A DNA stretch of 64,000 nt, from IMG/VR virus record IMGVR_UViG_2778261375_000003; one strand, given 5' to 3'. A program made the position numbers and the translations under genes. This DNA is from a virus. Taxonomy: Duplodnaviria; Heunggongvirae; Uroviricota; Caudoviricetes. The notes under the pieces are model-generated. The model ran no database searches and was not told the origin of the DNA. It saw nothing but the letters and a program-made list of their open reading frames with translations. Positions 604 through 54,563 of the stretch are shown here, one piece after another (positions within the stretch are counted from its first letter, which is position 1; the number at the start of each line of letters is the position of its first letter).

Positions 604-734
604 AATTGTATTTAAAATCAATCAGTTGCAAGCGTCTCCCCGAAATTCCCCGAAATTTACTCGAATTTCTGTATTCCGGTCTTTTTTGGTTATATCACAA
701 CCAATATACATTTAACAATCCATTTACGTTAAAA

Positions 735-1811
735 TCAGAGCAGTAAGTACGTTTTTTCTCGCTCATCAAGATACATTTTTGTTGTCTTCTCCGATGTGTG
801 ACCAAGTAGGCGCTGGGCAAATTCTTCTCCACATGTTTCTTTGTACAATCGTCCAGCCAGACTTCTGATCTCGTGAAAAGTTGGTGGGTTTTCACTGAAC
901 TGGATACCTGTTAATTTTCTGGCTGCGACAAATTTTTTTGTCAGGCCATCCGGGTGAATGCTGCCGTCAGGGCTGTTTTTTCTAATCCCGGCACTGATTA
1001 GATAATCTCCCCGGCTTACCAGGCGGCATCGTTCAACTACTGTACCAAGCCGTAGACCAGCGACAGGAAGGCTGAGTGACAGGGGGATAGCAATCATCAT
1101 TCCTGTCTTAATTTGCCTGATGTGGAGACGATCATCATAAATATCACTGAACCGCATATTCGTTATGTCTTCGCGACGTTGTCCTGTTACAAGGGCTAAA
1201 TCCATAGCTAATGGGAACCATGCCGGAAGTTGATCTGCTGCCTCCCTGATGCAGTTGTATGTCTTTAGTTTCAGTCGTTCTCTTGTAACTACTATTTTCG
1301 GTGCTCTTGTTGGTGTTACTGGATTTTGAGATATACGTCCTTCAACAATGGCCTCGCGGAACATATCAGATAACACAGAACGCATTGATCCTGCCATCGT
1401 GTTTTTCCCTCCTTCAATCCACAAATCAAGAAACTCGGCAATATGGCGAGTGGTTATTTCTGTCAGTAAAACCCCTCCTAATTTTTCTTTTATTGTCTCC
1501 AGTTGATTTACCCGAATTTTATAAGTATTTCTGGACACTTTTCTCCTTATAAGAATCGTTTTGTAACGTTCAATCCAGTCTGCCATAGTAAATGAGTCGA
1601 ACCCTTTTAGTTTTTCAATTAAGGCAGCAGGAGAGTAGTTTTTGTATATATAATGATTTGCTTCAATTGCCTGCGCTACTGCATCTCTTCTTGAAATTTT
1701 ACCTAGTGTAAATTCTTCTTTCGTCAGAGGGTTGCGCCAGTAATATGCTTTGTCCCTCCTTCGATATGTTAAGTTTTTAGGCAAATTGGGATCGTATTTT
1801 TTCCGCTGCAT
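735..1811 (-). CDS. int: Tyrosine integrase, lambda Int family
   Basis: 358 aa; C-terminal catalytic region (...[11 protein letters not shown]...[17 protein letters not shown]) closely parallels lambda Int; overlaps xis as in lambda. Confidence 0.9.
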
Positions 1812-6894: not shown

Positions 6895-7289
6895 AATTAT
6901 CTCCATTTTTACAAATGAATTTTGTCGATGCGGTGCCTGGTGCCTCCAGGTGACGTTAACCAGTTAACAATTAACGCCGGATAATCCACCCATAACACTG
7001 ATGCTTTTAACTGTTCCGCGTGCGCTTAGCCGCATTCACCGCATCACAAAATTCACTTTAAAAAGGGGCGGCAGGGCAGCCACGGAGTAGAACTGATGCC
7101 GCCAAAGACTAGACACAGCAATGTCGTTATTTACAACCGGAGGCGCACTCCCACCATTTAAATTTAACAGACAAGACCGACTCTTTATGAATACCGGAAA
7201 TGCGCCTTCGTGTTGTGCGCCTGTCTTTTTACCACTTCAGGCTCGGTGGTATACTGGAGTTCTCACACAACCAGTAATAAGGTATTCCG

Positions 7290-12421: not shown

Positions 12422-12514
12422 TTTAAATTTAGCACTGTTAAAAATTTAATCCTTAACCGGAGGGATTTCTGCACCCTCAGAACATCAGGAGTCCGCCCGA
12501 AAGGGCGGTAAGAA

Positions 12515-12733
12515 ATGACTACATTATTCAGAAAAGAATATCCGCGAAGAAGTAGAACGACAGAATTTTTGTTTCTCATTCTGTTTATCGTGTTGATGAC
12601 ACCGATATCCCCGCTAATTTTTGTCTGGGCAATCGGGAAAATAATTGAGCCAGTTATTGAATTGTATAACGACGTGGTATGGGCGTCGTTCAACACACTG
12701 CACAATAAAATTAATCCGTATAAGGAAAGCTGA
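12515..12733 (+). CDS. Small hydrophobic membrane protein
   Basis: 72 aa with one long hydrophobic helix (FLFLILFIVLMTPISPLIFVWAIG). Confidence 0.4.
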   Translation: MTTLFRKEYPRRSRTTEFLFLILFIVLMTPISPLIFVWAIGKIIEPVIELYNDVVWASFNTLHNKINPYKES

Positions 12734-12734
12734 T

Positions 12735-13166
12735 ATGACCACTATTACCACTATTACCAGAGAAAACGCGGAGATTAAATCATTCATCACTGGTTTCCTG
12801 AGCGACCCGGCGCACGATAACCAATCTTCAGACAGCCTGCTTGCCAATGTGTTTCGTATCGCGCTGGCTTCGCTGGAAGCAGAACCAGTTGCATGGACTG
12901 ATGATGAGGAACTGCGTGATGTCAAGCAGTATGGTCTCGGTGAGATATTTCAGTGCCCGCCAGATAAATACGCAGACTCGCGTCGTGTAATTCCGCTGTA
13001 TCGTGTGCCGCCAGCTTCCATGGTGCAGGCACAGGGCATAGAGATTGCAATAAACGAACTGGTGGCTCTGTCCCCACGCTTGGATAAACAGGCGGTGGAA
13101 ACTCTTTCTATGGCTGTGGAACATTTACGCAAACTGGTTAAGAAGCAGTTGCAGACTAAGGACTAA
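12735..13166 (+). CDS. Hypothetical phage protein, paralogue A
   Basis: ATG 12735 behind aaggaaag RBS; begins MTTIT and contains RIALASLEAEPVA, both shared with next gene. Confidence 0.55.
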   Translation: MTTITTITRENAEIKSFITGFLSDPAHDNQSSDSLLANVFRIALASLEAEPVAWTDDEELRDVKQYGLGEIFQCPPDKYADSRRVIPLYRVPPASMVQAQGIEIAINELVALSPRLDKQAVETLSMAVEHLRKLVKKQLQTKD

Positions 13167-13169
13167 CCC

Positions 13170-13865
13170 ATGACCACTATTACCAAAGAACGTATTGAAT
13201 TGTTCATTAAAAATCCGCTTGAAAACGGGCTTGCTCGTAGCGAACAAATGGAAGTGGCACGGATCGCTTTGGCATCGCTGGAAGCAGAGCCGGTGGCATA
13301 TCAGTATCGCCAGTGGGATGCAGAATATGATGAATGGGGAGAATGGGAAGATTGCGGGGAATGTGCTTTCGAAAGATTCGTTGAGGAAGAGAAATGCCAG
13401 GGGGCAGGTGTTCAGACCCGTAAGCTTTACACCGCCCCTCCAGTGCCGGTAGTGCCAGAGGAAATCAGCATGGCTTCAAAGTTGCCTCTCATGAGTGACC
13501 AGTTGATGTTAGTAGGTTATGTGAAGGGGTGGAACGCCTGCCGCGCAGCCATGCTTCAGTCCGGAAACTTTCGGGAAATCTCGGAAACGTCAACCAACTC
13601 TCCGATAACTCTGACTCCTTTGCCTGGTGGTTTCACCATTGAGGATGCGAAGGAGTTACATGAAGACCTGGTACGCAGCCACATAAGCCAGGCTTTAAGT
13701 GGCGAGAAGATGAAAAAGAAAGATCGTGATGCTGATTTGCTCTGGATTCATGGCGTTATAGTACAGGCAGCGTGGTTTGTGAAAGCCTCACTGGATGCGT
13801 TGCCTGAACCGCTGCGGGAGGAGAAGGGAGGAAGTCCAACTGAAGAAAGTGAAGCCGGACTGTAA
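13170..13865 (+). CDS. Hypothetical phage protein, paralogue B
   Basis: 231 aa; shares MTTIT N-terminus and ARIALASLEAEPVA block with previous gene. Confidence 0.55.
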   Translation: MTTITKERIELFIKNPLENGLARSEQMEVARIALASLEAEPVAYQYRQWDAEYDEWGEWEDCGECAFERFVEEEKCQGAGVQTRKLYTAPPVPVVPEEISMASKLPLMSDQLMLVGYVKGWNACRAAMLQSGNFREISETSTNSPITLTPLPGGFTIEDAKELHEDLVRSHISQALSGEKMKKKDRDADLLWIHGVIVQAAWFVKASLDALPEPLREEKGGSPTEESEAGL

Positions 13866-13931
13866 ATTACCGAGTAAGGCGATGGACTACCTGAAGCGAA
13901 ACGGGCTGACAAGCGTGGAGGATATTTTACG

Positions 13932-14015
13932 ATGACCTGGCCTGAGGCATTCACCACGGTAGGAATTGCAATGGCGGTGGCGCTGGTGGTGTATTCGATT
14001 TGCCGCTGGGGATAA
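13932..14015 (+). CDS. Possible 27-aa hydrophobic peptide
   Basis: Hand-found ORF MTWPEAFTTVGIAMAVALVVYSICRWG; below ORF-track cutoff; speculative. Confidence 0.25.
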   Translation: MTWPEAFTTVGIAMAVALVVYSICRWG

Positions 14016-14203
14016 AAACGGTTTGCGGGAAAAGGAGAGTTAAGTAGAATTGCAGCGGGTGCTTGAGGCTATCTGCCTCGGGCATGAACACCAACGGCAG
14101 ATAGATAAAAGCCCCACCCGACTATAAATCGAAGTGAGGCCCCTATATGCTCGTCACATATAGATTGCCTCTTACGGACCGAAAGGTCAAGGAGAAGCAG
14201 GCT

Positions 14204-14359
14204 ATGAAGCAGCAAAAGGCGATGTTAGTCGCCCTGATCGTCATCTGTTTAACCGTCATAGTGACGGCACTGGTAACGAGGAAAGACCTCTGCGAGGTAC
14301 GAATCCGAACCGGCCAGACGGAGGTCGCTGTCTTCGTAGACTACGAACCTGAGGAGTAA
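14204..14359 (+). CDS. hok: Hok/Gef-family type I toxin
   Basis: 51 aa MKQQKAMLVALIVICLTVIVTALVTRKDLCEVRIRTGQTEVAVFVDYEPEE, near-identical to recalled HokD/RelF; in-frame upstream ATG at 14147 could act as a mok-like leader. Confidence 0.9.
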   Translation: MKQQKAMLVALIVICLTVIVTALVTRKDLCEVRIRTGQTEVAVFVDYEPEE

Positions 14360-14427
14360 GAGACCCGGCGGGGGAGAAATCCCTCGCCACCTCTGATGTG
14401 TCAGGCATCCTCAACGCACCCGCACTT

Positions 14428-14450
14428 ACCCCGCTTCGGCGGGTTTTTTG
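14428..14450 (+). terminator. Rho-independent terminator of hok transcript
   Basis: ccccgcttcggcggg hairpin followed by tttttt. Confidence 0.7.
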
Positions 14451-14637
14451 TTGTTTATTTTCGGTGAGCATGATGCATCTGGTTGTACTGATGTGGCTGG
14501 CTGATTCTGTTATTCAGGTGGCTTATTGCTGTTGATTGGTATGTCTTCACGGCTAGAATCGAGGCTCTTAAGTAGCGCGCAGGGAGAAGAGGGATGGACC
14601 CCGAAGGGGAAGAGCTATTTATCTGGAAGGATTCTGA

Positions 14638-14813
14638 AGATGAAAATCGAAGAATTGCGTGAAATTTTTAGTGAAAATGGCCTCTATGCTGTGCGCGTTG
14701 AGAATGGGAAAGTTGTCTACACAACGTTAATCCCTGATGATCATGTAATTTTATCTATCGAGGCATTCATTGAATACCTTGAAAGGCTCGGTTTCAAGGT
14801 GGTTCGCGAATGA
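14638..14813 (+). CDS. Hypothetical small protein
   Basis: 58-aa ORF from MKIEELREIF; start chosen at internal ATG. Confidence 0.4.
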
Positions 14814-16313: not shown

Positions 16314-16339
16314 CTCAATCTGTTATCCGGGGCTATATT
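16310..16339 (+). promoter_or_regulatory. Candidate late promoter pR'
   Basis: TTGACT (16310-16315), 18-bp spacer, TATATT (16334-16339), overlapping the Q stop codon. Confidence 0.4.
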
Positions 16340-16400
16340 CCTCACGCGCCAGCAAAATCTGGCGTCGGGATTGGCGTCCTGGATAGAGACCGCGACAGAT

Positions 16401-16422
16401 ACACGCCGCGAGCGTGTTTTTT
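16401..16422 (+). terminator. Candidate tR' terminator of a short pR' leader RNA
   Basis: acacgccgcgagcgtgt hairpin plus tttttt, about 75 nt downstream of the predicted pR' start. Confidence 0.5.
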
Positions 16423-16583
16423 ATTGTCGTATGCACGCGCACATCTGAATTATGGTGGGCTGTGTGGGGGCGGAGAGATCCGCGCCGGTCGGTTTCCCGG
16501 TTACGCCAACCCTGCACAGTTCACCACCAGATGATTGGCGTCGTCGGTGGTGAGTTATTAAGAAACCACCAGAGGGCGTCATT

Positions 16584-35849: not shown

Positions 35850-36581
35850 ATGAGTTTAGCGCAGCCAAAATCAGGAGAACTGTTAGATCTTCTGACTCCT
35901 TCATTAACTAAGGGTGAAAACCTTCTGAGTGAGTTTGAAATCCATCGAATCATTCGTGAAGCGAAGAAACTACCTGAACGTTATCAGGGGCTATCAATTG
36001 AAGGCTTAGCTAAGCTTGTTCTTGGTGAAATAGATGAAGGATGTTCACTCTGTGAGCGGGGGTTGAGAATAGCGCCTAACGATCCAGTTTCTTTTTGTAA
36101 CTATACGATTGCGCTGCGTAACTTAGGTTTGCATGCTCGCCAGTATGTGATGATTCAGAAAGCATCTGATTCACTTAATCCAACGATATTGGCTGAGGTT
36201 GCTACAATTTCTGCATACTGGGTTGATATCGATTTGCTTGAAAAGGTGATGCCGATGCTAACTGCAATGGAAGTACCGCGCCCTGAAGATATGGGCAAAT
36301 GGTATGACACGCTCAATTATCTGCATACCCAAAAAGATCATGCTCAGGAGCTAAAAACTATTGGGCGGCTCATGATGAACGTTGCAGAAAAGTACCGCGC
36401 TCGTCTTGCTGGCGCTCATGCTTTTTATGTAATGTCAGAACTTGATACGCTGTTCGTTGAAGTCAAAACAGACGATCCAGTGCTTCTTTCGCAGATGAAT
36501 AATGCCTTGGCTGATGAGATTATTATTGCGGGGCTTGCGGATTCAGAATGCGTCGGATGCTTTGAAGCCGGGGAACTCTAA
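35850..36581 (+). CDS. Hypothetical helical protein, gene 1 of two-gene moron
   Basis: 243 aa; preceded by 150-bp AT-rich intergenic; stop overlaps next ATG (TAATG). Confidence 0.55.
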   Translation: MSLAQPKSGELLDLLTPSLTKGENLLSEFEIHRIIREAKKLPERYQGLSIEGLAKLVLGEIDEGCSLCERGLRIAPNDPVSFCNYTIALRNLGLHARQYVMIQKASDSLNPTILAEVATISAYWVDIDLLEKVMPMLTAMEVPRPEDMGKWYDTLNYLHTQKDHAQELKTIGRLMMNVAEKYRARLAGAHAFYVMSELDTLFVEVKTDDPVLLSQMNNALADEIIIAGLADSECVGCFEAGEL

Positions 36582-37826: not shown

Positions 37827-38179
37827 TGCGATACAGACGTGAAGACGCCGATGGCGATTACACCTTTGGCAGCGGTGATGACACCTGGCTGATTAACTCA
37901 CCGGAGGCCGTGGCGCAGGCGGTAAAAACGCGATTCGAATTGTGGTATGGGCAATGGTTTCTCGACACCACCGAGGGGACTCCGTGGATCCAGTCCGTAC
38001 TCGGTAAGCAGAAGCCGGAAACCTACAACCTAGCGATCAGAAAACGCATTCTGGAAACGCAGGGCGTTAAATCAATCCTCTCTTTCAATACGACGGTGGA
38101 TACCACGACCCGACGTGTCATGTTTTCCGCTGAAATCGACACTCTCTATGGAATAACGACTGTTACATCGGAGGCGTAA
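37823..38179 (+). CDS. Baseplate protein (gpW-like)
   Basis: 118 aa, ATGA-coupled between spike and J-like gene. Confidence 0.55.
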   Translation: MMRYRREDADGDYTFGSGDDTWLINSPEAVAQAVKTRFELWYGQWFLDTTEGTPWIQSVLGKQKPETYNLAIRKRILETQGVKSILSFNTTVDTTTRRVMFSAEIDTLYGITTVTSEA

Positions 38180-39378
38180 TGGCTCTGAACCTTGATTCTC
38201 TCGGTTTATCTGCAAAGGTAACCGCGGAGGGGATCAGTGCGCCTGATTATCAGACGATACTCAGCACCCTGATTAGCTATTTTCAGCAGATTTATGGCAG
38301 TGATGCCTACCTCGAACCGGACAGCAAAGACGGCCAGATGGTGGCTCTGATGGCGCTGGCGATTCATGATGCCAATAATATGGCGATAACTGTCTACAAC
38401 TGTTTTTCACCGGCAACCGGCTATGGGGCTGCACTGACCAGTAACGTGAAAATAAATGGTATTTCACGTAAAGGCGCGACGAATTCTACGGTTGATTTGC
38501 TTCTTACAGGAACTGCCGGGGCAACCATCATTAATGGCAGCGTGAAAGACAGTAATAATGTGATATGGCGTTTGCCTGCTTCAGTGGTGGTCGGCGTGGA
38601 TGGTACAGTGATGGTGACCGCAACATGTTCCGTCAGTGGTGCAGTGGCGGCGCTGGCTGGAACTATCACTGAAATTAATACGCCAACCCGTGGCTGGATT
38701 TCGGTAACCAATCCTGCTGCAGCTACTGTAGGCACTCCAGCAGAAACTGATGCTGAGTTACGTATCCGCCAGTCGCAAAGTGTTGCGTTGCCATCAATAA
38801 CCCCATTTGAAGCACTGGATGGTGCTGTTTCTAATGTTGCCGGTGTAACCCGCCACAAACTCTATGAAAACGATACTGGTTCGGAGGACGGTAACGGGTT
38901 ACCGCCACACTCTGTTGCTGTAATTGTGGATGGTGGTGATGTGACGGATATTGCTCAGGCTATCAGAGGGAATAAAGGCCAGGGGACAGCCACTCACGGT
39001 ACAACATCCGTTACGGTTCTGGATAAATACGGCAATCCCCATGTAATCAAATTCTCGCGTTCCAGTGATGTACCTGTTTATGCCCGGATTAAATTAAAAG
39101 TTTTTACGGGTTATACCTCACAGATAGGGCAGCAGATCCAGCAGGCTATTTCCGACTATATCAATAGTCTGATGATTGGTGATTCGGTCCTTTTAAGTCG
39201 CATTTACTCACCGGCGAATCTTGGCGTGGTGAGTGGCGGGAATGCACGCTATTACGATATTCAGGAACTGACGATTGGGAAATCCCCGGGGGCTTTGTCG
39301 TCATCAAACATTGATATCAGATACAACGAATCTGCGTCCTGTACCCCGGAAAATATCGTTATAACGGTGGAGTCATGA
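38179..39378 (+). CDS. Baseplate J-like protein
   Basis: 399 aa in canonical position. Confidence 0.6.
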   Translation: MALNLDSLGLSAKVTAEGISAPDYQTILSTLISYFQQIYGSDAYLEPDSKDGQMVALMALAIHDANNMAITVYNCFSPATGYGAALTSNVKINGISRKGATNSTVDLLLTGTAGATIINGSVKDSNNVIWRLPASVVVGVDGTVMVTATCSVSGAVAALAGTITEINTPTRGWISVTNPAAATVGTPAETDAELRIRQSQSVALPSITPFEALDGAVSNVAGVTRHKLYENDTGSEDGNGLPPHSVAVIVDGGDVTDIAQAIRGNKGQGTATHGTTSVTVLDKYGNPHVIKFSRSSDVPVYARIKLKVFTGYTSQIGQQIQQAISDYINSLMIGDSVLLSRIYSPANLGVVSGGNARYYDIQELTIGKSPGALSSSNIDIRYNESASCTPENIVITVES

Positions 39379-40055
39379 GCAAATACACCGAACTAATCAC
39401 AAACTACCACGCCACCAAACCTAAATTTCTTGCACATGTTGATCTGATGACCCGGCCGCTTATTGATGTTGCGGCTGCCACCAGAGGGCTGATTACTGCA
39501 TTTGATATTGACTCTGCGGTTGGTGTGCAACTTGACATTCTGGGATTGTGGATCGGACGTAGCCGTGTTGTCAGCCAGCCTATCTCAGGTGTCTATTTCA
39601 GCTGGGATACCGACGGGCTTGGATATGATCAGGGGGTATGGCAGGGACCATACGATCCTGATTCCGGATACATGTACCTCAGCGATGAAACTTATCGTGT
39701 CATTCTTAAAGCGAAGATTGCGATTAATAACTGGGACGGACGGAATGATTCGCTTCCGGCAATTCTTGACGCTGCAACAGCAGGATCCGGGCTGCGAATG
39801 CAGATAGTCGATAACCAGGACATGACGATATCGGTCTGGGTCTTTCCTGATACTGATATTTCAGATGTATCGCGTGAGTTAATTGCGGCAATTAAACAGG
39901 GGTATCTCACAGTAAAAGTCGCCGGGGTATGGGCGGGTGGCATTGAAACACCTTCGGTGGAAACCCCATCGGAAGGCTCAAAATTTTTTGGTTTTGATAT
40001 GGATAACGAATTCATCAGTGGTTTTGATGTAGGAGCATGGGGAGTATTACTCTGA
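39375..40055 (+). CDS. Baseplate protein (gpI-like)
   Basis: 226 aa between J-like gene and tail fiber. Confidence 0.5.
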
Positions 40056-40828
40056 TGGCGAAAAATGACTTTAAAGCGTTTGCAACGGATCGAAATGCCA
40101 ATGTTATATCGCAGGAGGAATGGGAAGCGTTGCCCGCGCTTTTATCCGGATTTACAGCAGGGAAAGCCTCCAGTGCGCAAGTCAATAAGGTTATTCGGCA
40201 GGCCAGCTTTATTGCTGCAGCTCTGGCCCAGTTTGTAAGTGATAAAACGCAACGGGATGTGCTTGATAATGGTGATCTGCCCGGTTTTGTTGAATTGCTG
40301 GGATCGGGGTTTGCTGTTGAATACCTGAGCCGCAAGAATCCGTTTGGTGATATCAAATCGGATGGCACGGTGAAAACGGCTCTCGAAAACCTTGGTTTGG
40401 GAGAAGGTTCGGCATTACCCGTTGGTGTGCCTGTCCCGTGGCCTTCCGCCACTCCGCCAACAGGCTGGCTAAAATGCAATGGTGCGGCTTTTTCTGCTGA
40501 AGAATACCCGGAACTGGCAAAGGTTTATCCGACAAATAAATTGCCTGATTTACGCGGTGAATTTATTCGTGGATGGGATGATGGGCGTGGGGTGGATTCC
40601 TCTCGTGGTTTGTTGACATCTCAAGACCATTTATTTGCTTCTCATGGGCACTGGTTTGACAAGTACTATGCGCTAACAGGTTTTGATACAACGGGAGGTC
40701 GGTTCGTAGTTACGGCTGATGCTTTCGGGGAACTTATTAAGGCAAATTCAATTTCTACGGTATCGGTTGGTGGTTCTGAAACCCGGCCGCGCAACGTCGC
40801 ATTTAACTATATCGTGAGGGCAGCCTGA
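40055..40828 (+). CDS. Tail fiber protein (short, Stf-like C-terminus)
   Basis: C-terminus ...[10 protein letters not shown]...[12 protein letters not shown]...[11 protein letters not shown] parallels recalled lambda Stf C-terminus; ATGA overlap with previous gene. Confidence 0.7.
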
Positions 40829-41430
40829 TGAATAAAGCCGTATTAAATAACGAACTCATTGCCATAAAAGCGGGAGACATTACCATTTATAATTATGATG
40901 GTGAAACGCGGGAATATATTTCCACATCAACTGAATATCTTGCGGTTGGCGTCGGTATACCGGCATGCTCCTGTTTAGATGCTCCTGACTCATATAAAGC
41001 TGGTTATGCAATCTGCCGTTCTGCAGATTTTAACTCATGGGTATATGTGCCAGACCACCGTGGTGAAACGGTATATAGCACTGAAACAGGAGAATCAAAA
41101 GAAATCACAGCTCCGGGTGATTACCCTGAAAATACAACCACTATCGCCCCGTTAACGCCATTCGATAAATGGGATGGTGAGAAATGGGTGACCGATACTG
41201 AGGCACAGCATTGCGCCGCAGTAGACGCGGCAGAAGCACAGCGTCAGTCACTGATTGATACTGCAATGGCTTCCATCAGTCTGATTCAACTGAAATTGCA
41301 GGCCGGGCGGAAGCTGACGCAGGCAGAAACCACCCGACTTAACGCTGTGCTGGATTACATTGACGCGGTGACGGCAACAGATACCAGCACCGCGCCGGAT
41401 GTCATCTGGCCTGAACTGCCGGAGGCGTAG
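40828..41430 (+). CDS. Tail fiber assembly protein (Tfa)
   Basis: 200 aa after fiber gene; C-terminal ...LDYIDAVTATDTSTAPDVIWPELPEA. Confidence 0.75.
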   Translation: MNKAVLNNELIAIKAGDITIYNYDGETREYISTSTEYLAVGVGIPACSCLDAPDSYKAGYAICRSADFNSWVYVPDHRGETVYSTETGESKEITAPGDYPENTTTIAPLTPFDKWDGEKWVTDTEAQHCAAVDAAEAQRQSLIDTAMASISLIQLKLQAGRKLTQAETTRLNAVLDYIDAVTATDTSTAPDVIWPELPEA

Positions 41431-41842
41431 GCCATTCAATATCTGGCGCACCGGAAGTATCGACCAGTTCCAGTGCGTCCAGGTAATCCAGCCACAAATT
41501 ATATTGCGCCAGTTCGTCACCTTTCAGACGACCAATAGCCGCTTTACCAGGCCATTGTTTACTGTTCATATAATCGTTGGCCTGATTAATCAATTGCTGC
41601 TTCTCCAATTCGGCTGCAGCAATTTGTTCCTCATGTGTTGGTGGTGGAATTTCGGACCATGCAGGAAAACCATTTTCTCCAGCGATACGGATTTTTCCTT
41701 TCGGCGGTAATCCGGAAAACTCAATATACACTTGCTCATCAACTTCAACAGCATCATCTGGCCATGAGTCAGCTTGAGTGTAATCCTCTTTCATCCCCAG
41801 CGGATAGAAAGAGTTTGTAGTCGCGGAATATATGTAATTCAT
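41402..41842 (-). CDS. Tail fiber assembly protein (Tfa), second copy, convergent
   Basis: 146 aa; C-terminal ...LDYLDALELVDTSGAPDIEWPTPP; 3' end overlaps the plus-strand tfa by 29 bp. Confidence 0.75.
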   Translation of the reverse strand: MNYIYSATTNSFYPLGMKEDYTQADSWPDDAVEVDEQVYIEFSGLPPKGKIRIAGENGFPAWSEIPPPTHEEQIAAAELEKQQLINQANDYMNSKQWPGKAAIGRLKGDELAQYNLWLDYLDALELVDTSGAPDIEWPTPPAVQAR

Positions 41843-41863
41843 TTTTCACTCCATATAGCTAAA

Positions 41864-43798
41864 TTAACAGCCTAACGCTAAAAATGAAGCGCCGAGGCCA
41901 GGAGTACTGGCTCTGGATATAAATTTAACCGGGTCGGGACTAAAACCTGCACAGGCAATATAACCAACAGCCCCGCTATCTGGTGTGTAGTCTTGTGAGA
42001 CCAAAACACGCAGACATCTGTTTGGAAATGCAATCGGGAAATGGGTTACTACATCCTGTGCAATGCCTGGTGCGCCGATTGAGCCCCACTGAAGAATAAA
42101 ACCTGATGGTAATTTTTGATATCCAGTACCTGAAACAGAAAGCGTGAAGCTACCCATATCAGGTATCTGATTCGCCCCTGTCCCTACATTCCTTTTAGCC
42201 GCTTCTCCCAAACCAAGGTATTGGATAACGGCCAGTGTGCTTGTTTTAGCCAGAATATCGCGACCGACTGACGTTAAATCAGTCTGAGCTACCGTATCCT
42301 TACCAGTGAAATAAGGCAGTTTGTTTGCACCAGTCGCAAGGGCAGCGAGAGCGGTTAAAGTTGCATCCAGAGGCTGTTTGCCTGCCAGCGCATTTGTCAT
42401 TGTTGTCGCAAAGTTCGGGTCATTGCCAAGTGCTGCGGCAAGCTCATTCAGGGTATCAAGAGCTTCTGGTGATGAACCAACCAATGCGGATATGGCAGCT
42501 CTTACATAAGCGGTCGTAGCAATCTGCGTGTTATTCGTACCCTGTGCAGCGGTAGGCGCAGTAGGGACACCCGTTAATGCAGGGCTTGCCAAAGGCGCTT
42601 TGAGAGCCAAGGCATTGTTGATAGTTGTGCTGTAATTCGGGTCGTTATTGATCGCAGCAGCTATTTCTTTAAGCGTATCCAGTGTGCCAGGCGCACCGTT
42701 GATAAGTGCAGTTATAGCTGCCTTAACAAAGGCTGTATTTGCGATCTGCGTGTTATTCGTACCCTGTGCAGCGGTAGGCGCAGTAGGTATTCCCGTTAAT
42801 GCAGGACTTGCTAAAGGAGCTTTAAGAGCCAGAGCATTGTTGATAGTTGTGCTGAAATTCGGGTCGTTATTGATCGCAGCAGCTATTTCTTTAAGCGTAT
42901 CCAGTGTGCCAGGTGCACCGTTGATAAGTGCCGTTATAGCTGCCTTAACAAAGGCTGTATTTGCGATCTGCGTGCTATTTGTACCTTGCGCTGCCGTCGG
43001 CGCGGTTGGCGTTCCTGTCAGACTCGGGCTTTCTATTGGCGCTTTGGTATCAGCCAGATCTTTTATAGACTTAACAGCTTTAGGGGTAGCCGCCATTGTT
43101 TCGCTGTCGCTGTTAGTTGCGCTACTGAGCTGAACTAATCCCTTTTGCGTTGTGCTTGCATCCTGTGCCGTATACTTGCTTTTCGCCAGATCGTAGGCTT
43201 TTTTAACTGCCAGCGAACTTGCAGCAACATCACTTCTGGTACTGGTTACAGAGTCTGAAATATCAATGCCGATCGAGCGGTTGATACGCTCGGATGTATC
43301 AATCATCTCCTGGGTAATGGCAGATACACTAGCAGGGATATTCACCGTACAAACAAGCAGCTCCCCATCTCCTAACTGATATGAATCGGTATAGGTTCTG
43401 GCAACAAATTCAGCCGCATGAATATGTGACGCGGTATTCACCTGGTAGGTATCTTCTCCAAGGAGGTATCTTCCCTTCAGCACAATTGCATATTTCTTGC
43501 CTGCACTAAGTGCAAGAGAAATATCCTTACGTTGCTGAATAGTTACCTGGTAAAATTCACCAATATCCACCGACGCCGCGCCTGCGGTTTTATCACCATC
43601 CACTGAGGTAATTAACAGGTTCATCCCACCGCCAGGCTTAGGTAAGAAACCGGCATAAAATCCCGGGTCAACAATCCCCCTGAATTTTCGGTTTAGCGCG
43701 GCTGACAGATATGGTTCGTGGTATTGCACATCGGCCACCAGAGCCAACGACTCGGATGATGGGTAAGTAACCGATGTAACAACTGTAACGTCATTCAT
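41864..43798 (-). CDS. Side tail fiber protein (Stf-like) with internal tandem repeats
   Basis: Start set at MNDVTVVTS; contains ...[25 protein letters not shown]... and ...[35 protein letters not shown]... blocks shared with lambda Stf / P2 H as recalled. Confidence 0.8.
42540..43030. repeat. Tandem coding repeats (about 222-bp unit) within tail fiber gene
   Basis: Near-identical DNA at 42641-42660 and 42863-42882 and surrounding; encode repeated [57 protein letters not shown] units. Confidence 0.75.
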
Positions 43799-43809
43799 CA
43801 AGCATATCC

Positions 43810-44244
43810 TTATGCTGTAGTCGTGTTTATGGCCATAACTGCGGTATATGTTTTGCCCACATACAGCGAGTCTTCCTGGACACAAATAATGGCGATTGGC
43901 TTGTTCTCGTTATCCAGAACAACCAGAGTGTTGAATGGGTAGTTTTTCCCTTCCTGCAACTGGCTTTGATCAAGGTCCATTCGGACAGTAATTATCCCGC
44001 CTGAGTAGGTTGGGACGAGGTTGATGGTGCAAAATTGACTGGTCAGTTCTGCCAGTTCGAAAGCCTTTGGCAGTTCTCCAATCTCATAAGTGCCATCTCC
44101 TTTCTTAGTAACCAGCGAACTGGTACCGAAAACGGCCTTGCTGATTAAAAATCGAGAGCCTTTGTTAATGGACGATTCAGCGCGCCGCTGATAGTAATAG
44201 TCCAACAACTGACTCTTATAGAGGTTTGTTGAGACGTCAGACAT
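43810..44244 (-). CDS. Tail/baseplate-associated hypothetical protein
   Basis: 144 aa immediately upstream of minus-strand tail fiber. Confidence 0.45.
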
Positions 44245-44322
44245 GATTTTCCCTAATCAATGTTGTGAAGCCTCATTGTAAGATAAGTAACTTGTCACCC
44301 CGCCCTGCGGACGGGGTGATTA

Positions 44323-45162
44323 TCAGGCATCACTATCCAGCAGCAAATCATCTGCGCGGGTGCGATCAAACGTAGGCGTTGCTTTCACAATAGTGCCGCC
44401 CGGCGTTGCAGTGATCGGAGCGCTAATCGACGTAACTCCAGTAAGCGAAGTTGTATCCGAAGTTTCAAACCAGCAGTACGCTTTTTCGGTATCAGAAATC
44501 TCGTTCAAAGTGATCATGTCGGCGTGTTCATTTACAACAACCGACAAATAGAGCGTAAGCCCATCAAACACTATATGCAGTGGCAGTAGAGGCTTTACGA
44601 ACTGATTAAACTTTCTGAGAATTTCTTCTGTAATTGCGGACTGATCTATCGTGCCAGTAATCCCCATTGTCCGGGCCAGGTCGTTTATGGGAATACTGAT
44701 CATCCCTCTGGAAGTCAGAAACATCTCGCCGAATGTGCCGCCGGTAGTCTCCAGTGTGCTTTCAGGTATTAGAACCGTGCCATAGGGATGACGCTCAAGG
44801 TCCACCGGTGCATATATCGGATCCCATAAAACAGAAATACCGTTAAATTCGCGGTAAATTGTCTGGTTTATAGGGCGTTCAGTCCCCTTAAAGTGAATCT
44901 CATCAAGACGCTGTTGTAACAACATCGGAACGGAAGATGAGTTCGACGTTCTGATAGTAAAGAACTGGCCAAGTTCATTTGTCCTGGTCTCCAGATCCTC
45001 CTTGCTCATGGAAAAAATAGACTTCCGGTTGGTAATTCGCTCCAACCATGGGTCAACAAAGGTATCCATCATTGACTGAACCAAATCAGCCAATGATTTA
45101 TAGAGCAATGACTTTTGCTTAGCTGATGTAAGCCGGTTATTAAACCAGGAACGCTGCATCAC
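44323..45162 (-). CDS. Baseplate protein (gpI-like position)
   Basis: 279 aa between J-like gene and fiber region on minus strand. Confidence 0.45.
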   Translation of the reverse strand: MMQRSWFNNRLTSAKQKSLLYKSLADLVQSMMDTFVDPWLERITNRKSIFSMSKEDLETRTNELGQFFTIRTSNSSSVPMLLQQRLDEIHFKGTERPINQTIYREFNGISVLWDPIYAPVDLERHPYGTVLIPESTLETTGGTFGEMFLTSRGMISIPINDLARTMGITGTIDQSAITEEILRKFNQFVKPLLPLHIVFDGLTLYLSVVVNEHADMITLNEISDTEKAYCWFETSDTTSLTGVTSISAPITATPGGTIVKATPTFDRTRADDLLLDSDA

Positions 45163-46592
45163 TCCTCCTCATACGAAATATTAAAGGTGGAGTTTTCTGT
45201 ATCCAGATAAACGAAATCGTAAAAGCCGTTGGACTCATTCCACTCGACAAATTCCAGATAAAAGTCGCGGAAATAACCCAGCGTTTCGATAAATGCCCAA
45301 ACGTCTTTTTTCTTGATTAGGATGTACTTGCCAACACGGTTCGGATCAAAGAAAGTTGAGTCACGCCCAAATTTTGTTTCCAGTGCCGACTTCAGCTCAT
45401 CAGTCACGTTCTCAATGGTCAGGCTTGCCGATATCCGCCCGGTGATGGTGATCTTAAAGGGTAGTTTTCTGACCTCTTTATACGAGAATTTCTTGTTCAA
45501 CTCATTCGGCACCTTCTTAAAGGCAGCCAGGATCATTTCTTCAAGCTCTGACTGGCTTTTGTTTGGATGCCATCCTGAAATAAATATCTTATTGATATTC
45601 CGAACATTATAAGCACCATCTAATTTCTCTTGCTGGCCTTCGCCCCATGCCTTTACCCAGGACAGTCCCGGGATGTTACGCACCAGAAAATACGTATAGT
45701 CCCCGCCCCATACGACCTGATCATCATAGGCAAGGTAATATTGTGCACGATTACGTGTGATCTCCGTTGTTTCGGCATCGGTACCTGCGGTTATGGGTGT
45801 CATTGTCTTAACTGAAATCAAATTAGCTAAATTAGCCGCAGAATCGACAGGCGTCAGATTTTGGCCAGCAACCAAGGTTATATCTCCGTTGGTGCACCAT
45901 ACCTTAAGTGTAATGGTCGAGCCTTCTGGCGGTATTTGCCCAATTAGCCCATCACCGAATCGAACCCCCAACTGCTCGGATGGTTTATAAAACTCAACGT
46001 AGACCTGGCTTTTACTACCAGCTAACCGGAACATAGTGCTGGAAGACCACTGCGTGGTCTTACCATCGGTCGTCACGAATACTTCCAGCTTATAGCAGAC
46101 AGCAGTGAGAGCCTTTGATAACACGACTTCCAGAAATTCTTTGGCTGCCGTAACGGTATATGTCACCTCCTGGATTTCCAACTGTGCCACTTCTACCGTA
46201 CCGGTGCCGTCAACCAACCTGCATACATCCATAGTTATGTAAGGGTACTGGTCGTCAGATATTAAAGGCATGTTTTTGGGGATTACCGCTGGAGCATCTT
46301 CACTTGTGGCGGTGATCTCAATCATCCCCGATGACGGTGTTGGCTTGGTACCAACGTAACTATTCGTTTCTGCCGCTGCCAGGATAGAGGAACGCCGCGT
46401 CGCGGTCGATATAAAGCCTTCAGCCAGCGCCGCATCGGCATACTGAAAGCACCTGTAGACAATCTGGGTAATAAACAATGTCAGCATCGAGACAAATTGA
46501 GAGCCGACAAACTTCGACCAGAATGAATCTTTCTCGACAAGCTCTTCAAACTCTGCACGAATACTGTCTTTAGTCGGTGTTGTTTTACTCAT
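45159..46592 (-). CDS. Baseplate J-like protein
   Basis: 477 aa in canonical position of minus-strand tail module. Confidence 0.55.
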   Translation of the reverse strand: MSKTTPTKDSIRAEFEELVEKDSFWSKFVGSQFVSMLTLFITQIVYRCFQYADAALAEGFISTATRRSSILAAAETNSYVGTKPTPSSGMIEITATSEDAPAVIPKNMPLISDDQYPYITMDVCRLVDGTGTVEVAQLEIQEVTYTVTAAKEFLEVVLSKALTAVCYKLEVFVTTDGKTTQWSSSTMFRLAGSKSQVYVEFYKPSEQLGVRFGDGLIGQIPPEGSTITLKVWCTNGDITLVAGQNLTPVDSAANLANLISVKTMTPITAGTDAETTEITRNRAQYYLAYDDQVVWGGDYTYFLVRNIPGLSWVKAWGEGQQEKLDGAYNVRNINKIFISGWHPNKSQSELEEMILAAFKKVPNELNKKFSYKEVRKLPFKITITGRISASLTIENVTDELKSALETKFGRDSTFFDPNRVGKYILIKKKDVWAFIETLGYFRDFYLEFVEWNESNGFYDFVYLDTENSTFNISYEEE

Positions 46593-46948
46593 AGCACCAC
46601 GTCCTGTGTGATAGTTATATCCCTGATACGAATGGATATTTTCAACTTATCAAAAGCATCTCCCTCGGCTACTGACAAGCCAGAAATCGGTATGTCAGGT
46701 AAATCTACCGTCAGTTTTTGCAACAGCATTGCCTCAACCGCAATTTGAACATGCGACAAGTTGGTCGGTTCGTGTTTAAACTGCGGTAAAACATTGCCCC
46801 ATGACGGATCCCCGTATACCTCACCCTGATAAGTGTTTAGCCACTCATATAAACGAGCGCCCCAGGCCTCCTCCTGGGACTCATACGTTTTTACGCCGGA
46901 TAACTCCAGCGTCAGCAAAGGATCAATTTCGTTATTGTTGGCCATCAA
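46589..46948 (-). CDS. Baseplate wedge protein (gpW/gp25-like)
   Basis: 119 aa, coupled between tape-measure-like gene and J-like gene. Confidence 0.5.
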   Translation of the reverse strand: MMANNNEIDPLLTLELSGVKTYESQEEAWGARLYEWLNTYQGEVYGDPSWGNVLPQFKHEPTNLSHVQIAVEAMLLQKLTVDLPDIPISGLSVAEGDAFDKLKISIRIRDITITQDVVL

Positions 46949-49900
46949 TCAACTCTCGCGTAGTCATTCATCAACGGATCATCAATTGACAGTGGTACCG
47001 TGCGCATAACGCCCGGCTGAGGCGTGCTGACCTTTACGACAGTTCCCTGGCCTTTCGCCGAGTCTTTGGTGTGCTCTTCAATCCTGGCAAGCAATGAGGC
47101 CATCTGCGCAAACAGCCGCTTCGTTTCACCATCAAGTGAAACGGTATTATCAGCCAACTGCATTGTCGGCTTGGCACCGGAGCCGCCAAGGTCACTAATA
47201 ACCTGTCCGTCTATCTGCATACGACCGGTTGGTTGCTGCAAATCGTTGGCGGCAGTCGTCACCTTGGACGTGGAGGCTGGTTCAGGCGCATTATTTTTCC
47301 GCATCCCCGGCGAGTTGCGGAGTTTATCGAATAGTCCATCAATCTCCATTTGTGCGCCGAGTTGGTCAAAGTAACTTGAGTTGTTGGCCACCGGACGCGC
47401 CTCTTCAACTGGCATCGGAGTATCAACATACACATTGCCAGCTGCTGTTGCGGTCCCCTTCCCTCGTGCACGTTCTTCGAGCGTTCCCTGAACGACTTCC
47501 CGACGCATACCCCGGCCATTCATGAATTTGTTGACCAGATCGTTAACGCCAACAGCATTGCCGATTTTGTCTACCAGACCGCCTTTCTCAAACGGGCTAT
47601 CACCAGGGGTAAATGCCAGGCCAGTAGACTGATCGATAACAGCGTTATCAGGCAGTGGTCCCCTCACTCCATATTGCGCCCCACCCTGTGCTCCTGCTCC
47701 AGGTGTATAGATTTCACCACCTAAATAGCGAGCACGATGAGTATTGACCTTGATCGCGTACTCACGGTTTTCTTTGGATAAGTCACCTGTGCCTTTTTTC
47801 CACTTATTGATAGTGCCAAACCCAGCGTTATATGCAGTGATGGCCTCGTTTAAGTCTCCATTGGCTTGCTTCAGATACTTGCTCATGAGAAGAGCCGCAG
47901 CTTCTGCCGATTTCACAGGATCAAACGATTCACCTTCAGCTAAGCCAGTCTCTTCACGAGCAATCCCCGTGAACTGAAACATTCCCAGAGCACCGGTTTG
48001 GGATTTTGCATACGGATTACCACCAGATTCAGTTGCAGCAATCGCGTAAAGAGTGCCTTCTGGAAGACCGTATTTATTCTCTAGTTCGGCAAAATACGGA
48101 GCCAACTTATCGAGATTTGCCTTACCTTCAGCGCCAAGACTTCCGACTTTTACATCTAAGTTGCCATTGTTGTAAGTATCCGCAGCTTTCTGAATGTCAT
48201 TCCTGGTGCCAGTAGTATTAAGCGACGATGATGATGAGCTATTTTGACCAATAGCATTATCAATTTTCTGCAACGCGCTATTGCCCGTTTCTACGGCATT
48301 TGCATTGATAATCTGATTGGCAGTTTCTTTAACTGTTTTATTGCTATCTTTCGCCGTATCTAGGGATGCATTTACAACACGAGTGACAATATTAGCCTTT
48401 TTAGGGGTATATTCAGTCTTAGGAGCATTGTCCTCCTGACTTTCTTTAGCTGGTGTTTTTAATTCAGGTGTAACCTCTTTCGCATCCGCTTTGTTGACTA
48501 GCTTTGATGCAACCCAGGCCACAGGGGTGCTCTGAACAGCGGCATCTGCAACCTCACCTGAAAGCTCTTTTGCGGCACTCCATAGATTACTGCCAGCTTC
48601 TTTAATGTATTTCCCTGGGTTCTTAATGAAATCAATTGCACTATCAATTGCATCACTGAAAACCTGTTTCAGGTTATCGACAGTAAAGAAGTTTTTGATG
48701 GCGTCTAATTTTTCGTTCAGGTTCTTTGTTGTGTCACTGAACCATGCTGAAATAGCATCACCAATCTTTGCAGTATAATCACTAAATGTCGTGGATATAG
48801 TATCACCAAGGTTAGAAATATATGTTTCTAAATTGGTAATCCCACTATCAATGGCCTGGGCAATACTTTCCGTCGAAAATGATTGCAACATATTGCCGAT
48901 ATCCTCAAATCCAAGTGATTTGAGAACGCCGCCAATGGCACTGCTAATACCAGATACCAGTCCTCCCATATCGAGAACGTTAGCCAGTGTATAAGCCGCT
49001 TTTTGCTGAAAAGATGGATCTTCCCCATCCTTAAGCCCAAAGGTCCGACGTTGTGCTTCTGTATCATTCCAACCGGTTACCGCATCATAGATACCTCCAG
49101 CCACCGTGCCGACTAGCGGAATTGCGCGTAAAGCCCCCTTTGCAAGAGCCTTAACACCTAGTTTCCCCAATCCCTTAGTTGCAAGTTTTCCGGCACCGCG
49201 AGTAGCCAATTCGCCAGCTTCTTTGGCAGCAGCTTTTTTCCCACCAAAGCCCAATAAGCTTGCAACTTTTTTTATACCTAAAGCGCCTAGTGCCATCGAG
49301 CCAACTTTCTTTAGTACCCCACGGCCAAAAATAAGGGAAGCAATACCACCGGCCCCCTTCCCTAACAGGCTAAATAGTTTGGACAGCAAGCCGCCCTTCT
49401 TTTTCCCGGTGTTTTTGGCTATCTGATCAAGGGCGCTGAGAATCTTGTCATTGCCCTCTTTAATTTCGCTGGTCTGCTCCTGAAGTTCCTGAACCGTCCG
49501 TTTTTGGGTGTTAACCTGAACGACATCGGCACTATTTTGCGATTTACGCCTAAAAAAACCTTTTCTACGGCTGTTATCGTCATTGCCACGAATCACATCG
49601 GCAATAGACTTTCTGGCACCATTAAGCGATCCACCAACTTCTTTTGATATCCCGCCAAGCTCCTTCCCTGCTGCCCACAATGGACCAGCAACGGCATAAC
49701 CTAACGCATCGACGGCACGAGTCTCTGAAGGGTTACCTATGCCTTCAGCTACTTTTGACAGTTTTTTTAATAAACCTGATTCAGCATTTAGACGCTCATC
49801 ATCCTCTTTGCGCCTGGCCTTTTCAGCACGTTCAGCACGGGCATCTTCCGCTGCGGCCTTACTCCCTGACTTTCCAATAAAACGACCACGCGCATCGCGT

Positions 49901-50640
49901 TGGTTTTGGCTTTTTTGCGCACCGCCTTTTTGATCGAACATTTTGCGAGCGTGTTCGGCTGCTTCGGTCCGTTGTGCCTTTATATCCTCTGGTATAGCCT
50001 TCCTGCGTCGTTTTTTACCCTTTGGTGTAGTTGATTTGGCCTGCTGTTCCTGTTGAGCAATGCCCTCCTGAACTACACGAGAAACGTCCCCTAAATTAAG
50101 CCGTTTCATTGCATCAACAATAGGGTCTACTGATGGCGCATTGGCCACAAAGTCTGGCCGGGAATTTTCGATTGTTCGATTTAATGCCGACACACTGCGA
50201 GATACTGGGTCAACCGTTGCAACGCGTTCCCCTTTCAAATCACGATCGAGTTTGACCGTTTCTAACCGCTGTGCTTTAACATCCTCTGTTATTGCCTCTC
50301 TTCGTCTATTTGGGGGATTGTGCGCTGTTGGTGCAGCCTGCTGTTCACGGTTAGTGACTTTGTCCTCCCGTATACGAGAAACGTCCCCTAAATTAAGCCG
50401 TTTCATTGCGTCAACAATAGAGTCCACTGATGGCGCATTGGTCACAAAGTCAGGACGTGAATTTTCGATTGTGCGATTTAATGCCGACACACTGCGAGAG
50501 ACAGGATCAACAGTTGCAACTCGTTCCCCTTTCAAATCTTCAACAGCTTCCCGAATACCTGCAAGCTCTTCCAGCTCTTTCGCGCTGGCGGTTTCAACTG
50601 TCCTTATAACATCGTCAATATTGGCGTTTTTTCTTTCCAT
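46945..50640 (-). CDS. Tape-measure-like protein with lytic transglycosylase (SLT) domain
   Basis: 1231 aa; SLT-like block ...AIAATESGGNPYAKSQTGALGMFQF...AYNAG...; Gly/Ala-rich helical stretches; two copies of an N-terminal repeat of about 55 aa. Confidence 0.6.
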   Translation of the reverse strand: MERKNANIDDVIRTVETASAKELEELAGIREAVEDLKGERVATVDPVSRSVSALNRTIENSRPDFVTNAPSVDSIVDAMKRLNLGDVSRIREDKVTNREQQAAPTAHNPPNRRREAITEDVKAQRLETVKLDRDLKGERVATVDPVSRSVSALNRTIENSRPDFVANAPSVDPIVDAMKRLNLGDVSRVVQEGIAQQEQQAKSTTPKGKKRRRKAIPEDIKAQRTEAAEHARKMFDQKGGAQKSQNQRDARGRFIGKSGSKAAAEDARAERAEKARRKEDDERLNAESGLLKKLSKVAEGIGNPSETRAVDALGYAVAGPLWAAGKELGGISKEVGGSLNGARKSIADVIRGNDDNSRRKGFFRRKSQNSADVVQVNTQKRTVQELQEQTSEIKEGNDKILSALDQIAKNTGKKKGGLLSKLFSLLGKGAGGIASLIFGRGVLKKVGSMALGALGIKKVASLLGFGGKKAAAKEAGELATRGAGKLATKGLGKLGVKALAKGALRAIPLVGTVAGGIYDAVTGWNDTEAQRRTFGLKDGEDPSFQQKAAYTLANVLDMGGLVSGISSAIGGVLKSLGFEDIGNMLQSFSTESIAQAIDSGITNLETYISNLGDTISTTFSDYTAKIGDAISAWFSDTTKNLNEKLDAIKNFFTVDNLKQVFSDAIDSAIDFIKNPGKYIKEAGSNLWSAAKELSGEVADAAVQSTPVAWVASKLVNKADAKEVTPELKTPAKESQEDNAPKTEYTPKKANIVTRVVNASLDTAKDSNKTVKETANQIINANAVETGNSALQKIDNAIGQNSSSSSSLNTTGTRNDIQKAADTYNNGNLDVKVGSLGAEGKANLDKLAPYFAELENKYGLPEGTLYAIAATESGGNPYAKSQTGALGMFQFTGIAREETGLAEGESFDPVKSAEAAALLMSKYLKQANGDLNEAITAYNAGFGTINKWKKGTGDLSKENREYAIKVNTHRARYLGGEIYTPGAGAQGGAQYGVRGPLPDNAVIDQSTGLAFTPGDSPFEKGGLVDKIGNAVGVNDLVNKFMNGRGMRREVVQGTLEERARGKGTATAAGNVYVDTPMPVEEARPVANNSSYFDQLGAQMEIDGLFDKLRNSPGMRKNNAPEPASTSKVTTAANDLQQPTGRMQIDGQVISDLGGSGAKPTMQLADNTVSLDGETKRLFAQMASLLARIEEHTKDSAKGQGTVVKVSTPQPGVMRTVPLSIDDPLMNDYARVD

Positions 50641-53951: not shown

Positions 53952-54563
53952 CCCAGAAAAACAAAAACCGGCGAGAAGTTACCACGAGAACGGAAAGTAA
54001 ACAAGAATACTCCCATTGACTTATATCAATTAATCAACTTTTTATAAGCTATCCCTAACTTATTGTGTATAGCTGAAAAGTCAGAGACAAGTTCACCATC
54101 TGCATTATTTCTTAAGTTAATAGTTTATTGCTAACTTAATTTATGTATCGACTATTGATATCCATCTTAAAGTTACAATATCCCTCTGCATTATTTTTCA
54201 TCACAAATAATATATCTATTGCACTACACTCACCTGCTCTAATAAATTTGTATTTTTAAGTCACAAATGCTATCTTTTCGCATCATATTGACCTTTTAAT
54301 CGTTCAGGCTTATAGTTCCGCCGTCGTAGCAAATTCTGCGACCGGGTTTAGCAGCCTGAATGATTGTGCGGACAGCCGCAGATATCCGATATTGCGGTAT
54401 TTTTGTGTCCGTAAAACCGTGTTACGCCCAAATTATGGTGGGGCGTGATGGGGAGGCTTCGGCCTGCTGGTTTCACAATCGCCAGTCTGCTAACCCCGTC
54501 ACGTCCTGCCACCTGTTTAGCAGCGGGTAGCAGGTTGTTAAACCTGATTGTGAGGCCGTAACT

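Follow-up and report, generated by a model that had tools for sequence, protein, structure and literature searches.

A Din-type invertible tail-fiber cassette shared by a lambdoid prophage and a P1-like phage-plasmid joins the two in an Escherichia coli draft contig, probably through the assembly path

The stretch analyzed here (the window) comprises 64,000 nucleotides of the tailed-phage record IMGVR_UViG_2778261375_000003 (Caudoviricetes), in which a plus-strand pair of tail-fiber and tfa (fiber chaperone) genes converges with a minus-strand tfa–fiber pair, the two tfa genes overlapping by 29 bp (41402–41430). These converging tfa genes are the native middle of a Din-family (Cin/Pin/Gin-type) invertible host-range cassette. 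On the source sequence, a draft contig of 271,099 bp (NOEJ01000003.1, contig number 3 of assembly GCA_002517405.1), this cassette stands between a lambdoid prophage and a P1-like phage-plasmid and occurs a second time. The topology is that of one reciprocal exchange between a canonical prophage arrangement, Sc–cassette–pinE, and a canonical plasmid arrangement, cin–cassette–P1 Sc, where Sc denotes the constant part of the fiber gene. The exchange was probably made by the assembler, threading a free plasmid through a collapsed repeat. All of the components belong to known families, namely a Din-type fiber cassette, a P1-like phage-plasmid and a lambdoid prophage.

The converging pairs and their 29-bp overlap, noted in the first-pass annotation of the window, were reproduced by the coordinates of the open reading frame (ORF) map. 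One strand of the cassette carries a Collar-type tip with its 200-residue chaperone and the other a Gp53-like tip with a 146-residue chaperone. The segment of 1.82 kb is bounded by two Din-type crossover sites of about 26 bp, ix1 and ix2, in inverted orientation. A 20-nt site pattern, allowing up to three mismatches, matched the window at ix1 and ix2 only, with 0.02 matches expected by chance. The outer half of ix1 is typical of sites on the Sc side of the prophage fiber gene, and the same site occurs in the relatives L002, L003 and L018. The outer half of ix2 is identical to that of P1 cixR.

Each fiber gene is divided by its crossover site into a constant and an exchangeable part. In the prophage fiber (40055–40828) the constant N-terminal part extends to 40391, and the variable Collar-domain tip, which belongs to the cassette, starts at 40394. 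In the P1-type fiber gene S the variable Gp53-like_C tip (41864–42214) is cassette while the constant part, Sc (42217–43798), is P1 DNA. The LGLGE motif of each fiber protein is encoded at its crossover site, and in the prophage protein a ...LENLGLGE motif straddles it. Both fiber genes are open as assembled (263/257 and 644 residues) and stay open when 40392–42216 is flipped in silico (235 and 672 residues), with the tips and chaperones swapped. The canonical order in intact relatives is constant fiber part, site, tip A with the 200-residue tfa converging on the 146-residue tfa with tip B, site, invertase. Both orientations of the cassette occur among relatives (L007 versus L003 and L018).

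The 29-bp overlap of the tfa genes is present in each intact relative of the cassette, for example the prophage in CP158447, phage 611R5 and the plasmid CP127299. The identical 146-residue tfa with the same overlap was found in Mu-like, P2-like, lambdoid and P1-like contexts. Because it is unchanged in every intact relative, the overlap is native to the cassette and is no recombination scar. A terminator or promoter was sought at the tfa junction, and nothing was detected over the shuffled background. One host-range cassette thus moves widely, with the same chaperone and crossover sites appearing in Mu-like, P2-like, lambdoid and P1-like phages. The exact prophage-fiber and S proteins, in turn, were found in the source contig as their only carrier by exact-protein look-up.

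Two records from other strains concern inversion of such cassettes. E. coli MS 198-1 carries the same P2-like phage in its chromosome (CP146687) and in a circular 'plasmid' record of 66,790 bp (CP146689), and the cassettes of the two copies lie in opposite orientation with only 2 mismatches. Flipping inside a single strain is directly evidenced by this pair. At 66.8 kb, the circular record has about double the length of a P2 genome; it could represent an excised dimer or have arisen in assembly. A P1-like plasmid, L040 (ABIZSO010000021.1, 10447–16565), has eight further short Collar-domain ORFs downstream of S, which also has a Collar domain, together with one tfa and a 190-residue invertase on the opposite side. 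In its layout the locus resembles an inversion region with several cassettes, of the shufflon or Min kind.

The second copy of the cassette lies outside the window. As shown by blastn, the 1,830-bp block at 40387–42216 recurs 95,441 bp downstream in the same orientation, without gaps and identical at 1830/1830 positions. The block consists of the invertible cassette plus the inner half-sites; where the outer half-sites begin, the copies cease to be identical. The gene order around the far copy is P1 darA, hdf, lydB, lydA, lydC, cin, cassette, pinE, pphA, yebW, yebV and rsmF. Canonical elements possess one Sc-side-type site and one invertase-side-type site each. Here the window copy has two Sc-side sites (prophage and P1) and the far copy two invertase-side sites (P1 cixL and Pin-side). 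With ix3 and ix4 denoting the sites of the far copy, the pairs ix2/ix3 and ix1/ix4 lie in inverted orientation on the contig as assembled, at distances of 93.6 and 97.3 kb.

The first-pass annotation had reported no invertase near the converging pairs, and the statement can be extended, as tblastn searches with Cin and PinE found none in the whole 64 kb. Nothing enhancer-like was detected in the window either, the best match to the recombinational enhancer reaching 36/72 positions. At the far copy, cin and pinE are both intact; the Cin encoded there shares 98% identity with that of P1, and 70/72 positions of the P1 enhancer are retained in cin and 55/72 in pinE. An invertase and enhancer next to the segment, a feature of the Din family, are therefore missing in the window and present at the far copy; the adjacent invertase would be found at both copies if the join is an assembly artifact. 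A G-segment-type switch had been named beforehand as the arrangement that would speak against the earlier interpretation. Half of it is seen here: crossover sites lie at both ends of the segment, but the invertases occur only at the junction 95.4 kb away.

The layout is of the Campbell type, with 1,830-bp direct repeats flanking an inserted replicon and both reciprocal junctions on the contig. With this single-crossover topology, the contig shows an entire P1-like genome placed in the prophage by an exchange at some point of the shared 1,830 bp. The point of crossover inside the cassette cannot be located because the two copies are identical. Integration at the junction by an integrase at an attachment (att) site was considered and rejected: the prophage has its own attL and attR, at sdsR and pphA, and the P1 DNA is situated between the two, with P1 homology starting at cixR. 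As was implied by the earlier remark that the overlapping tfa ends leave no room for an att site, neither att site nor integrase is involved.

The left element is the prophage. The window opens in E. coli chromosomal DNA with yebY and then the sdsR/ryeA small RNA locus, followed by a tyrosine integrase and recET (the annotation of yebY, int and recET was taken from relatives). The 611R5-like prophage extends from its integrase end to about position 40392, combines lambdoid early genes with a myovirus tail and is integrated between yebY and pphA. Its sequence matches phage vB_EcoM-611R5 and same-locus prophages of closed genomes, including CP158447, at about 97% identity. An imperfect att core of the left region, ACAGGAATCGT(A/G)TTCGGTCT, recurs beside pphA at the far junction (attR-like). 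The prophage encodes RecE and RecT.

The right element is the phage-plasmid. Of the sequence between 42204 and 64000, 87–93% can be aligned with P1 or P7, at an identity of about 97%. Homology with P1 sets in at its coordinate 36468, with cixR at 36471–36490 and its crossover at 36480/36481. On the same contig, repA, parA and parB come directly after the end of the window. Rather than a second integrated prophage, the right element is a complete P1-like phage-plasmid, starting exactly at cixR. As had been noted in the first pass, each fiber set is preceded by its own baseplate genes; the plus-strand set comes after Baseplate_J and Phage_Wedge1/DUF2612, and the minus-strand set after P1 R, gp16, BplA and PmgA. 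The second tape-measure-like gene recorded there encodes Sit, an SLT-domain protein for which the P1 annotation reads 'putative structural injection transglycosylase; putative tail ruler'. The coordinates of the features are collected in Table 1.

Table 1. Features of the window that bear on the join (aa, amino acids)
Feature	Position	Strand or sequence	Remarks
sdsR/ryeA locus (SraC/RyeA, SdsR/RyeB)	463-607		Rfam RF00101, RF00111; adjoins yebY; left attachment region of prophage
Prophage tyrosine integrase	735-1811	-	ORF; annotated as tyrosine-type recombinase/integrase in matching closed genomes
Prophage baseplate genes	38179-40055	+	Baseplate_J 38179-39378; Phage_Wedge1/DUF2612 39375-40055 (Pfam)
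Plus-strand tail fiber	40055 (or 40037)-40828	+	ORF map; 257/263 aa; Collar PF07484
Crossover site ix1	40380-40405	CTCTCGAAAACC-TT-GGTTTGGGAGAAG	central TT 40392-40393
tfa, 200 aa	40828-41430	+	Caudo_TAP_N + Caudo_TAP; chaperone for Collar-type fiber tip
tfa, 146 aa	41402-41842	-	Caudo_TAP; chaperone for Gp53-like tip; 3' end overlaps 200-aa tfa
P1-type fiber gene S	41864-43798	-	644 aa; Gp53-like_C tip + P1 Sc
Crossover site ix2	42203-42228	minus strand GTTATCCAATACC-TT-GGTTTGGGAGAAG	center (AA on plus strand) 42215-42216
P1 gene R (tail-fiber protein R)	43810-44244	-	PF26881; P1 annotation
P1 late promoter LPs	44275-44293	-	-22 box AAGTTACTT, -10 box TACAAT; identical to P1 promoter; upstream of R
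P1 baseplate genes	44323-46945	-	gp16 44323-45159; bplA 45159-46592; pmgA/bplB 46589-46945
P1 sit	46945-50640	-	1231 aa; SLT domain PF01464
Rest of P1/P7-like genome	50722-64000		pmgB, tubB, tubA, c4 RNA, icd-ant, kilA, repL, sheath gene, others; P7 annotation

With the topology established, the question is how the join came about. In the favored explanation, the P1-like element would be a free unit-copy plasmid in the cell and the prophage would be normal, both holding a base-for-base identical cassette. In a graph assembled from short reads, the exact repeat would be merged into a single edge, to which the plasmid would be attached as a loop. A plasmid that shares exactly one repeat with the chromosome forms a simple graph loop, which assemblers commonly resolve as chromosome–repeat–plasmid–repeat–chromosome. 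The contig, which enters the cassette from the constant part of the prophage fiber and leaves into P1 Sc exactly at cixR, would represent this path. The strain would then have two ordinary switches, with the prophage fiber toggled by PinE and the P1 fiber by Cin, each with an adjacent invertase and enhancer and both using the same pair of tips.

Several indirect observations speak for a join made in silico. Identity between the two copies is 100% and covers precisely the interval from one outer half-site to the other; a repeat edge that an assembly path traverses twice necessarily comes out identical. Unrelated pairs of cassettes are 94–97% identical. In the closed genome APEC20/16, the cassettes of a Mu-like prophage (CP127297) and a P1-like plasmid (CP127299) differ at 15/1888 positions (99.2% identical), a near-identity that suggests that co-resident phages exchange or homogenize the cassette. 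Short reads, unable to span 1.83 kb, were most likely used, since the source is a 271-kb chromosomal draft contig numbered 3. The inserted element is the whole P1-like genome (repA, parA, parB, cin, the lyd genes and darA), which is what traversing a plasmid loop would give.

Comparison with closed genomes points the same way. The window junction and the far junction were both absent from 5,426 closed E. coli genomes (best coverage 61% and 63%, respectively), in which each half of either junction is common. Other drafts were reached by a screen with the exact P1 R protein, which covered five index blocks with a longest contig of 0.2–1 Mb and gave four contigs among the matches listed. All four leave P1 via the fiber cassette into a resident prophage: NOEJ01000003.1 itself, two joins to P2-like prophages (JAXQYH010000159.1 and JBRWIF010000001.1) and one to an e14-like element that adjoins icd (VCRC01000001.1). 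The P2-like joins do not come from the same clone, as they differ by about 1% in sequence; they lie inside about 2.2 kb of shared DNA (roughly 12443–14664 of the locus from JAXQYH010000159.1) instead of at a cix site, of which only one was found there. The P1–P2-like junction was likewise absent from the closed genomes searched. These P1 S–prophage joins in other draft contigs are either a recurrent assembly artifact or a recurrent biological route. A further large draft contig, CBDFWU010000005.1 (L026), seems to start at the cassette. Closed chromosomes do hold P1-like DNA, joined elsewhere; APEC17 and OU349840 keep the canonical order cin–C-segment–S, and ST2747 is without cin.

Several points weigh against an assembly path. 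A real cointegrate would yield exactly the same contig, and the sequencing platform and assembler can be deduced only from the size and numbering of the contig. Perfect homology over 1.83 kb, together with the RecET of the prophage, is a good recombination substrate. Closed genomes do hold P1-like elements integrated beside resident prophages, and the contrast between drafts and closed genomes is drawn from small numbers (4 draft contigs versus 0 of roughly 700 closed P1-like replicons). Nevertheless, with identical copies in a draft and junctions that occur in no closed genome, the artifact that the first-pass annotation had mentioned as an alternative is now held to be the likelier origin.

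Three origins, namely homologous recombination, fusion by an invertase and threading by the assembler, are inseparable by sequence because the copies are identical and the outer half-sites keep their own flanks throughout. A real Campbell-type cointegrate, in which a RecA or prophage RecET crossover between identical cassettes inserted the whole 93.6-kb plasmid backbone, is possible, if on balance unlikely. The contig contains both reciprocal junctions, with the direct-repeat cassettes spaced by one P1 genome length, and recE and recT sit in the same prophage. Near-identical co-resident cassettes are known from the closed genome of APEC20/16, and in closed genomes P1-like DNA is fused to resident prophages by a route that is an open question in the literature (PMC10879196). 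Loop threading in a short-read graph nevertheless predicts the same contig, which alone does not discriminate, and exact identity of the copies in a cointegrate needs identical parents or later gene conversion. No cassette-mediated case was found among the 5,426 closed genomes, yet several draft contigs show such joins, and a cointegrate with 1.8-kb direct repeats should be a minority state of the population. Fusion by an invertase, with Cin or PinE recombining the plasmid cix site with the prophage site intermolecularly, is very unlikely. All four sites are good Din-type sites sharing the central TT and the inner half GGTTTGGGAGAA, the homology of the two loci ends exactly at the sites, and both invertase genes are intact, cin with its well-conserved enhancer. 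The product would be inseparable from that of homologous recombination because the cassettes are identical, and the analogous P1–P2-like joins fall within shared homology instead of at a site. Moreover, wild-type Din invertases (Hin, Gin, Cin) need a Fis-bound enhancer and sites in cis, arranged in a defined synapse, and strongly disfavor intermolecular fusion.

The first-pass annotation had proposed that two prophages recombined within the homologous tfa 3' ends, or that the window captures one state of a very large invertible element. The C-termini of both tfa proteins do share a Caudo_TAP motif, and different tail modules are indeed joined via homologous fiber DNA. The overlap, being unchanged in every intact cassette, is not a junction, and a crossover at the tfa 3' ends is ruled out. 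Homology to the parent types ends instead at the crossover sites, about 1.0 and 0.8 kb from the overlap, and the second element is a phage-plasmid with repA and parAB. The inverted pairs ix2/ix3 and ix1/ix4 (93.6 and 97.3 kb) make large flips formally possible, but only if the cointegrate is real, and an inversion alone cannot bring a plasmid into the chromosome. As an account of the origin of the join, the proposal is thus extremely improbable.

Should the cointegrate be real, the window cassette would serve two late operons at once. It would probably flip rarely, given that there is no enhancer in cis within 93.6 kb. The far copy would flip yet be silent, as it is without a constant fiber part or promoter. 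Crossing over between the 1.83-kb direct repeats would free the plasmid again. That the cointegrate is real and the window cassette still flips, despite there being no enhancer within 94 kb, is improbable. Through one switch, a P1-like phage and an unrelated prophage would then trade tips and chaperones with each other, and four sites with two invertases would allow inversions of 94–97 kb. Shared invertible cassettes would in that case be a general route of phage-plasmids into and out of chromosomes, which would answer the open question of PMC10879196.

A real join would offer a concrete homology-based mechanism by which P1-like elements come to be integrated next to resident prophages, a so far unexplained event; even so, it would be ordinary homologous recombination between shared modules. 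No description of a P1-like/prophage cointegrate formed through a shared cassette was found in the literature. Searches on the accession and on P1 cointegrates mediated by Cin or by a cassette yielded nothing of relevance, and the subject is not treated in an ETEC paper or in a paper on P1-like diversity. Co-resident phages can hold identical cassettes and thereby provide a ready substrate for exchange. Several drafts place a P1-like element in the chromosome via the cassette and closed genomes do not, so that surveys made from drafts could misclassify elements as integrated or plasmid.

The cassette and its flanks resemble several known systems. As in the P1 C segment with Cin (NC_005856; also P7), the right-hand site has the outer half of P1 cixR, and the order of Sc, R, LPs, gp16, bplA, pmgA and sit beyond it is that of P1, with about 97% identity. 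In contrast to the P1 C segment, which is 4.2 kb long, the cassette measures 1.83 kb and has different tips and chaperones. The inner half-sites are GGTTTGGGAGAA here and GGTTTAAGAGAA in P1, and cin, adjacent in P1, is 93.6 kb from the window copy on the contig.

With the Pin-type 611R5-like/e14-type prophages (E. coli CS6L, CP158447; vB_EcoM-611R5, ON470588), the window shares the baseplate genes, the constant fiber part, ix1, the cassette type, the 29-bp tfa overlap, the integration locus and the pinE-side site, the last seen at the far junction. Their order is cassette, tip fragment, pinE and pphA, whereas the window copy leads into P1 Sc and 93.6 kb of P1 DNA. The P1-like plasmid pAPEC201602 (CP127299) has a P1 Sc–cassette with the 146- and 200-residue tfa genes that is collinear with 40405–46000 of the window. 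Plasmids of this type are free circular replicons, unlike the element as it stands on the contig, and the pAPEC201602 cassette is 96% identical to the window's.

Among Din-type fiber cassettes, e14 P/Pin is named together with P1 C/Cin and Mu G/Gin. In the Mu G segment with Gin and in p15B Min, a constant fiber N-terminus is joined at a site to alternative C-termini with their own chaperones. This logic matches that of the cassette described here, the likeness being one of general design and not of compared sequence. More than two sites can coexist in such systems, which are on one replicon with one invertase.

Chromosomally integrated P1-like elements, as in ST2747 (CP007392) and APEC17 (CP178203), likewise keep their plasmid genes and adjoin genes of a resident prophage. 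They differ from the window in the place of the join, which is at a truncated lom in ST2747 and in the hot/humD region in APEC17, and in being closed genomes instead of a draft contig. In APEC17 (about 3,578,400–3,579,300) the join runs beyond hot/humD into the DUF551/ead/P genes of a lambdoid prophage. In ST2747 (about 2,130,850–2,131,860) the truncated lom is followed by P1 tubA; there is no cin, and C-segment remnants only. For integrated P1-like elements in general, the neighboring genes are recombinases or prophage genes, and the cause 'remains to be clarified' (Pfeifer & Rocha 2024, PMC10879196).

Some further features of the two elements were recorded. Other large or tandem repeats were sought in the window, and none was found besides the known ones in S and sit. 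Sc contains a 222-bp tandem repeat (2.2 copies, 89–92% identical) at 42485–43003, corresponding to the P1 b1/b2 elements. In sit there is a diverged direct repeat of 212 nt with a spacing of 297 nt (50030–50538), and Sit has 1231 residues versus 1140 in P1.

Rfam matches in the prophage comprised RalA (the RalR antitoxin RNA) beside recET, DicF and a sok antitoxin RNA (2169–2347, 7066–7117 and 14057–14206), which are typical rac/Qin-like cargo. The P1-like part has its own immI antisense module at 54310–54516, with the C4 RNA at 54431–54516 (Rfam). A second P1-type immI antisense module (c4-a1b1 targets and C4 RNA) lies in the lambdoid prophage at 16333–16531, together with an isrK match at 16346–16422. 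With two immI modules, the co-resident elements might cross-talk at the antirepressor level.

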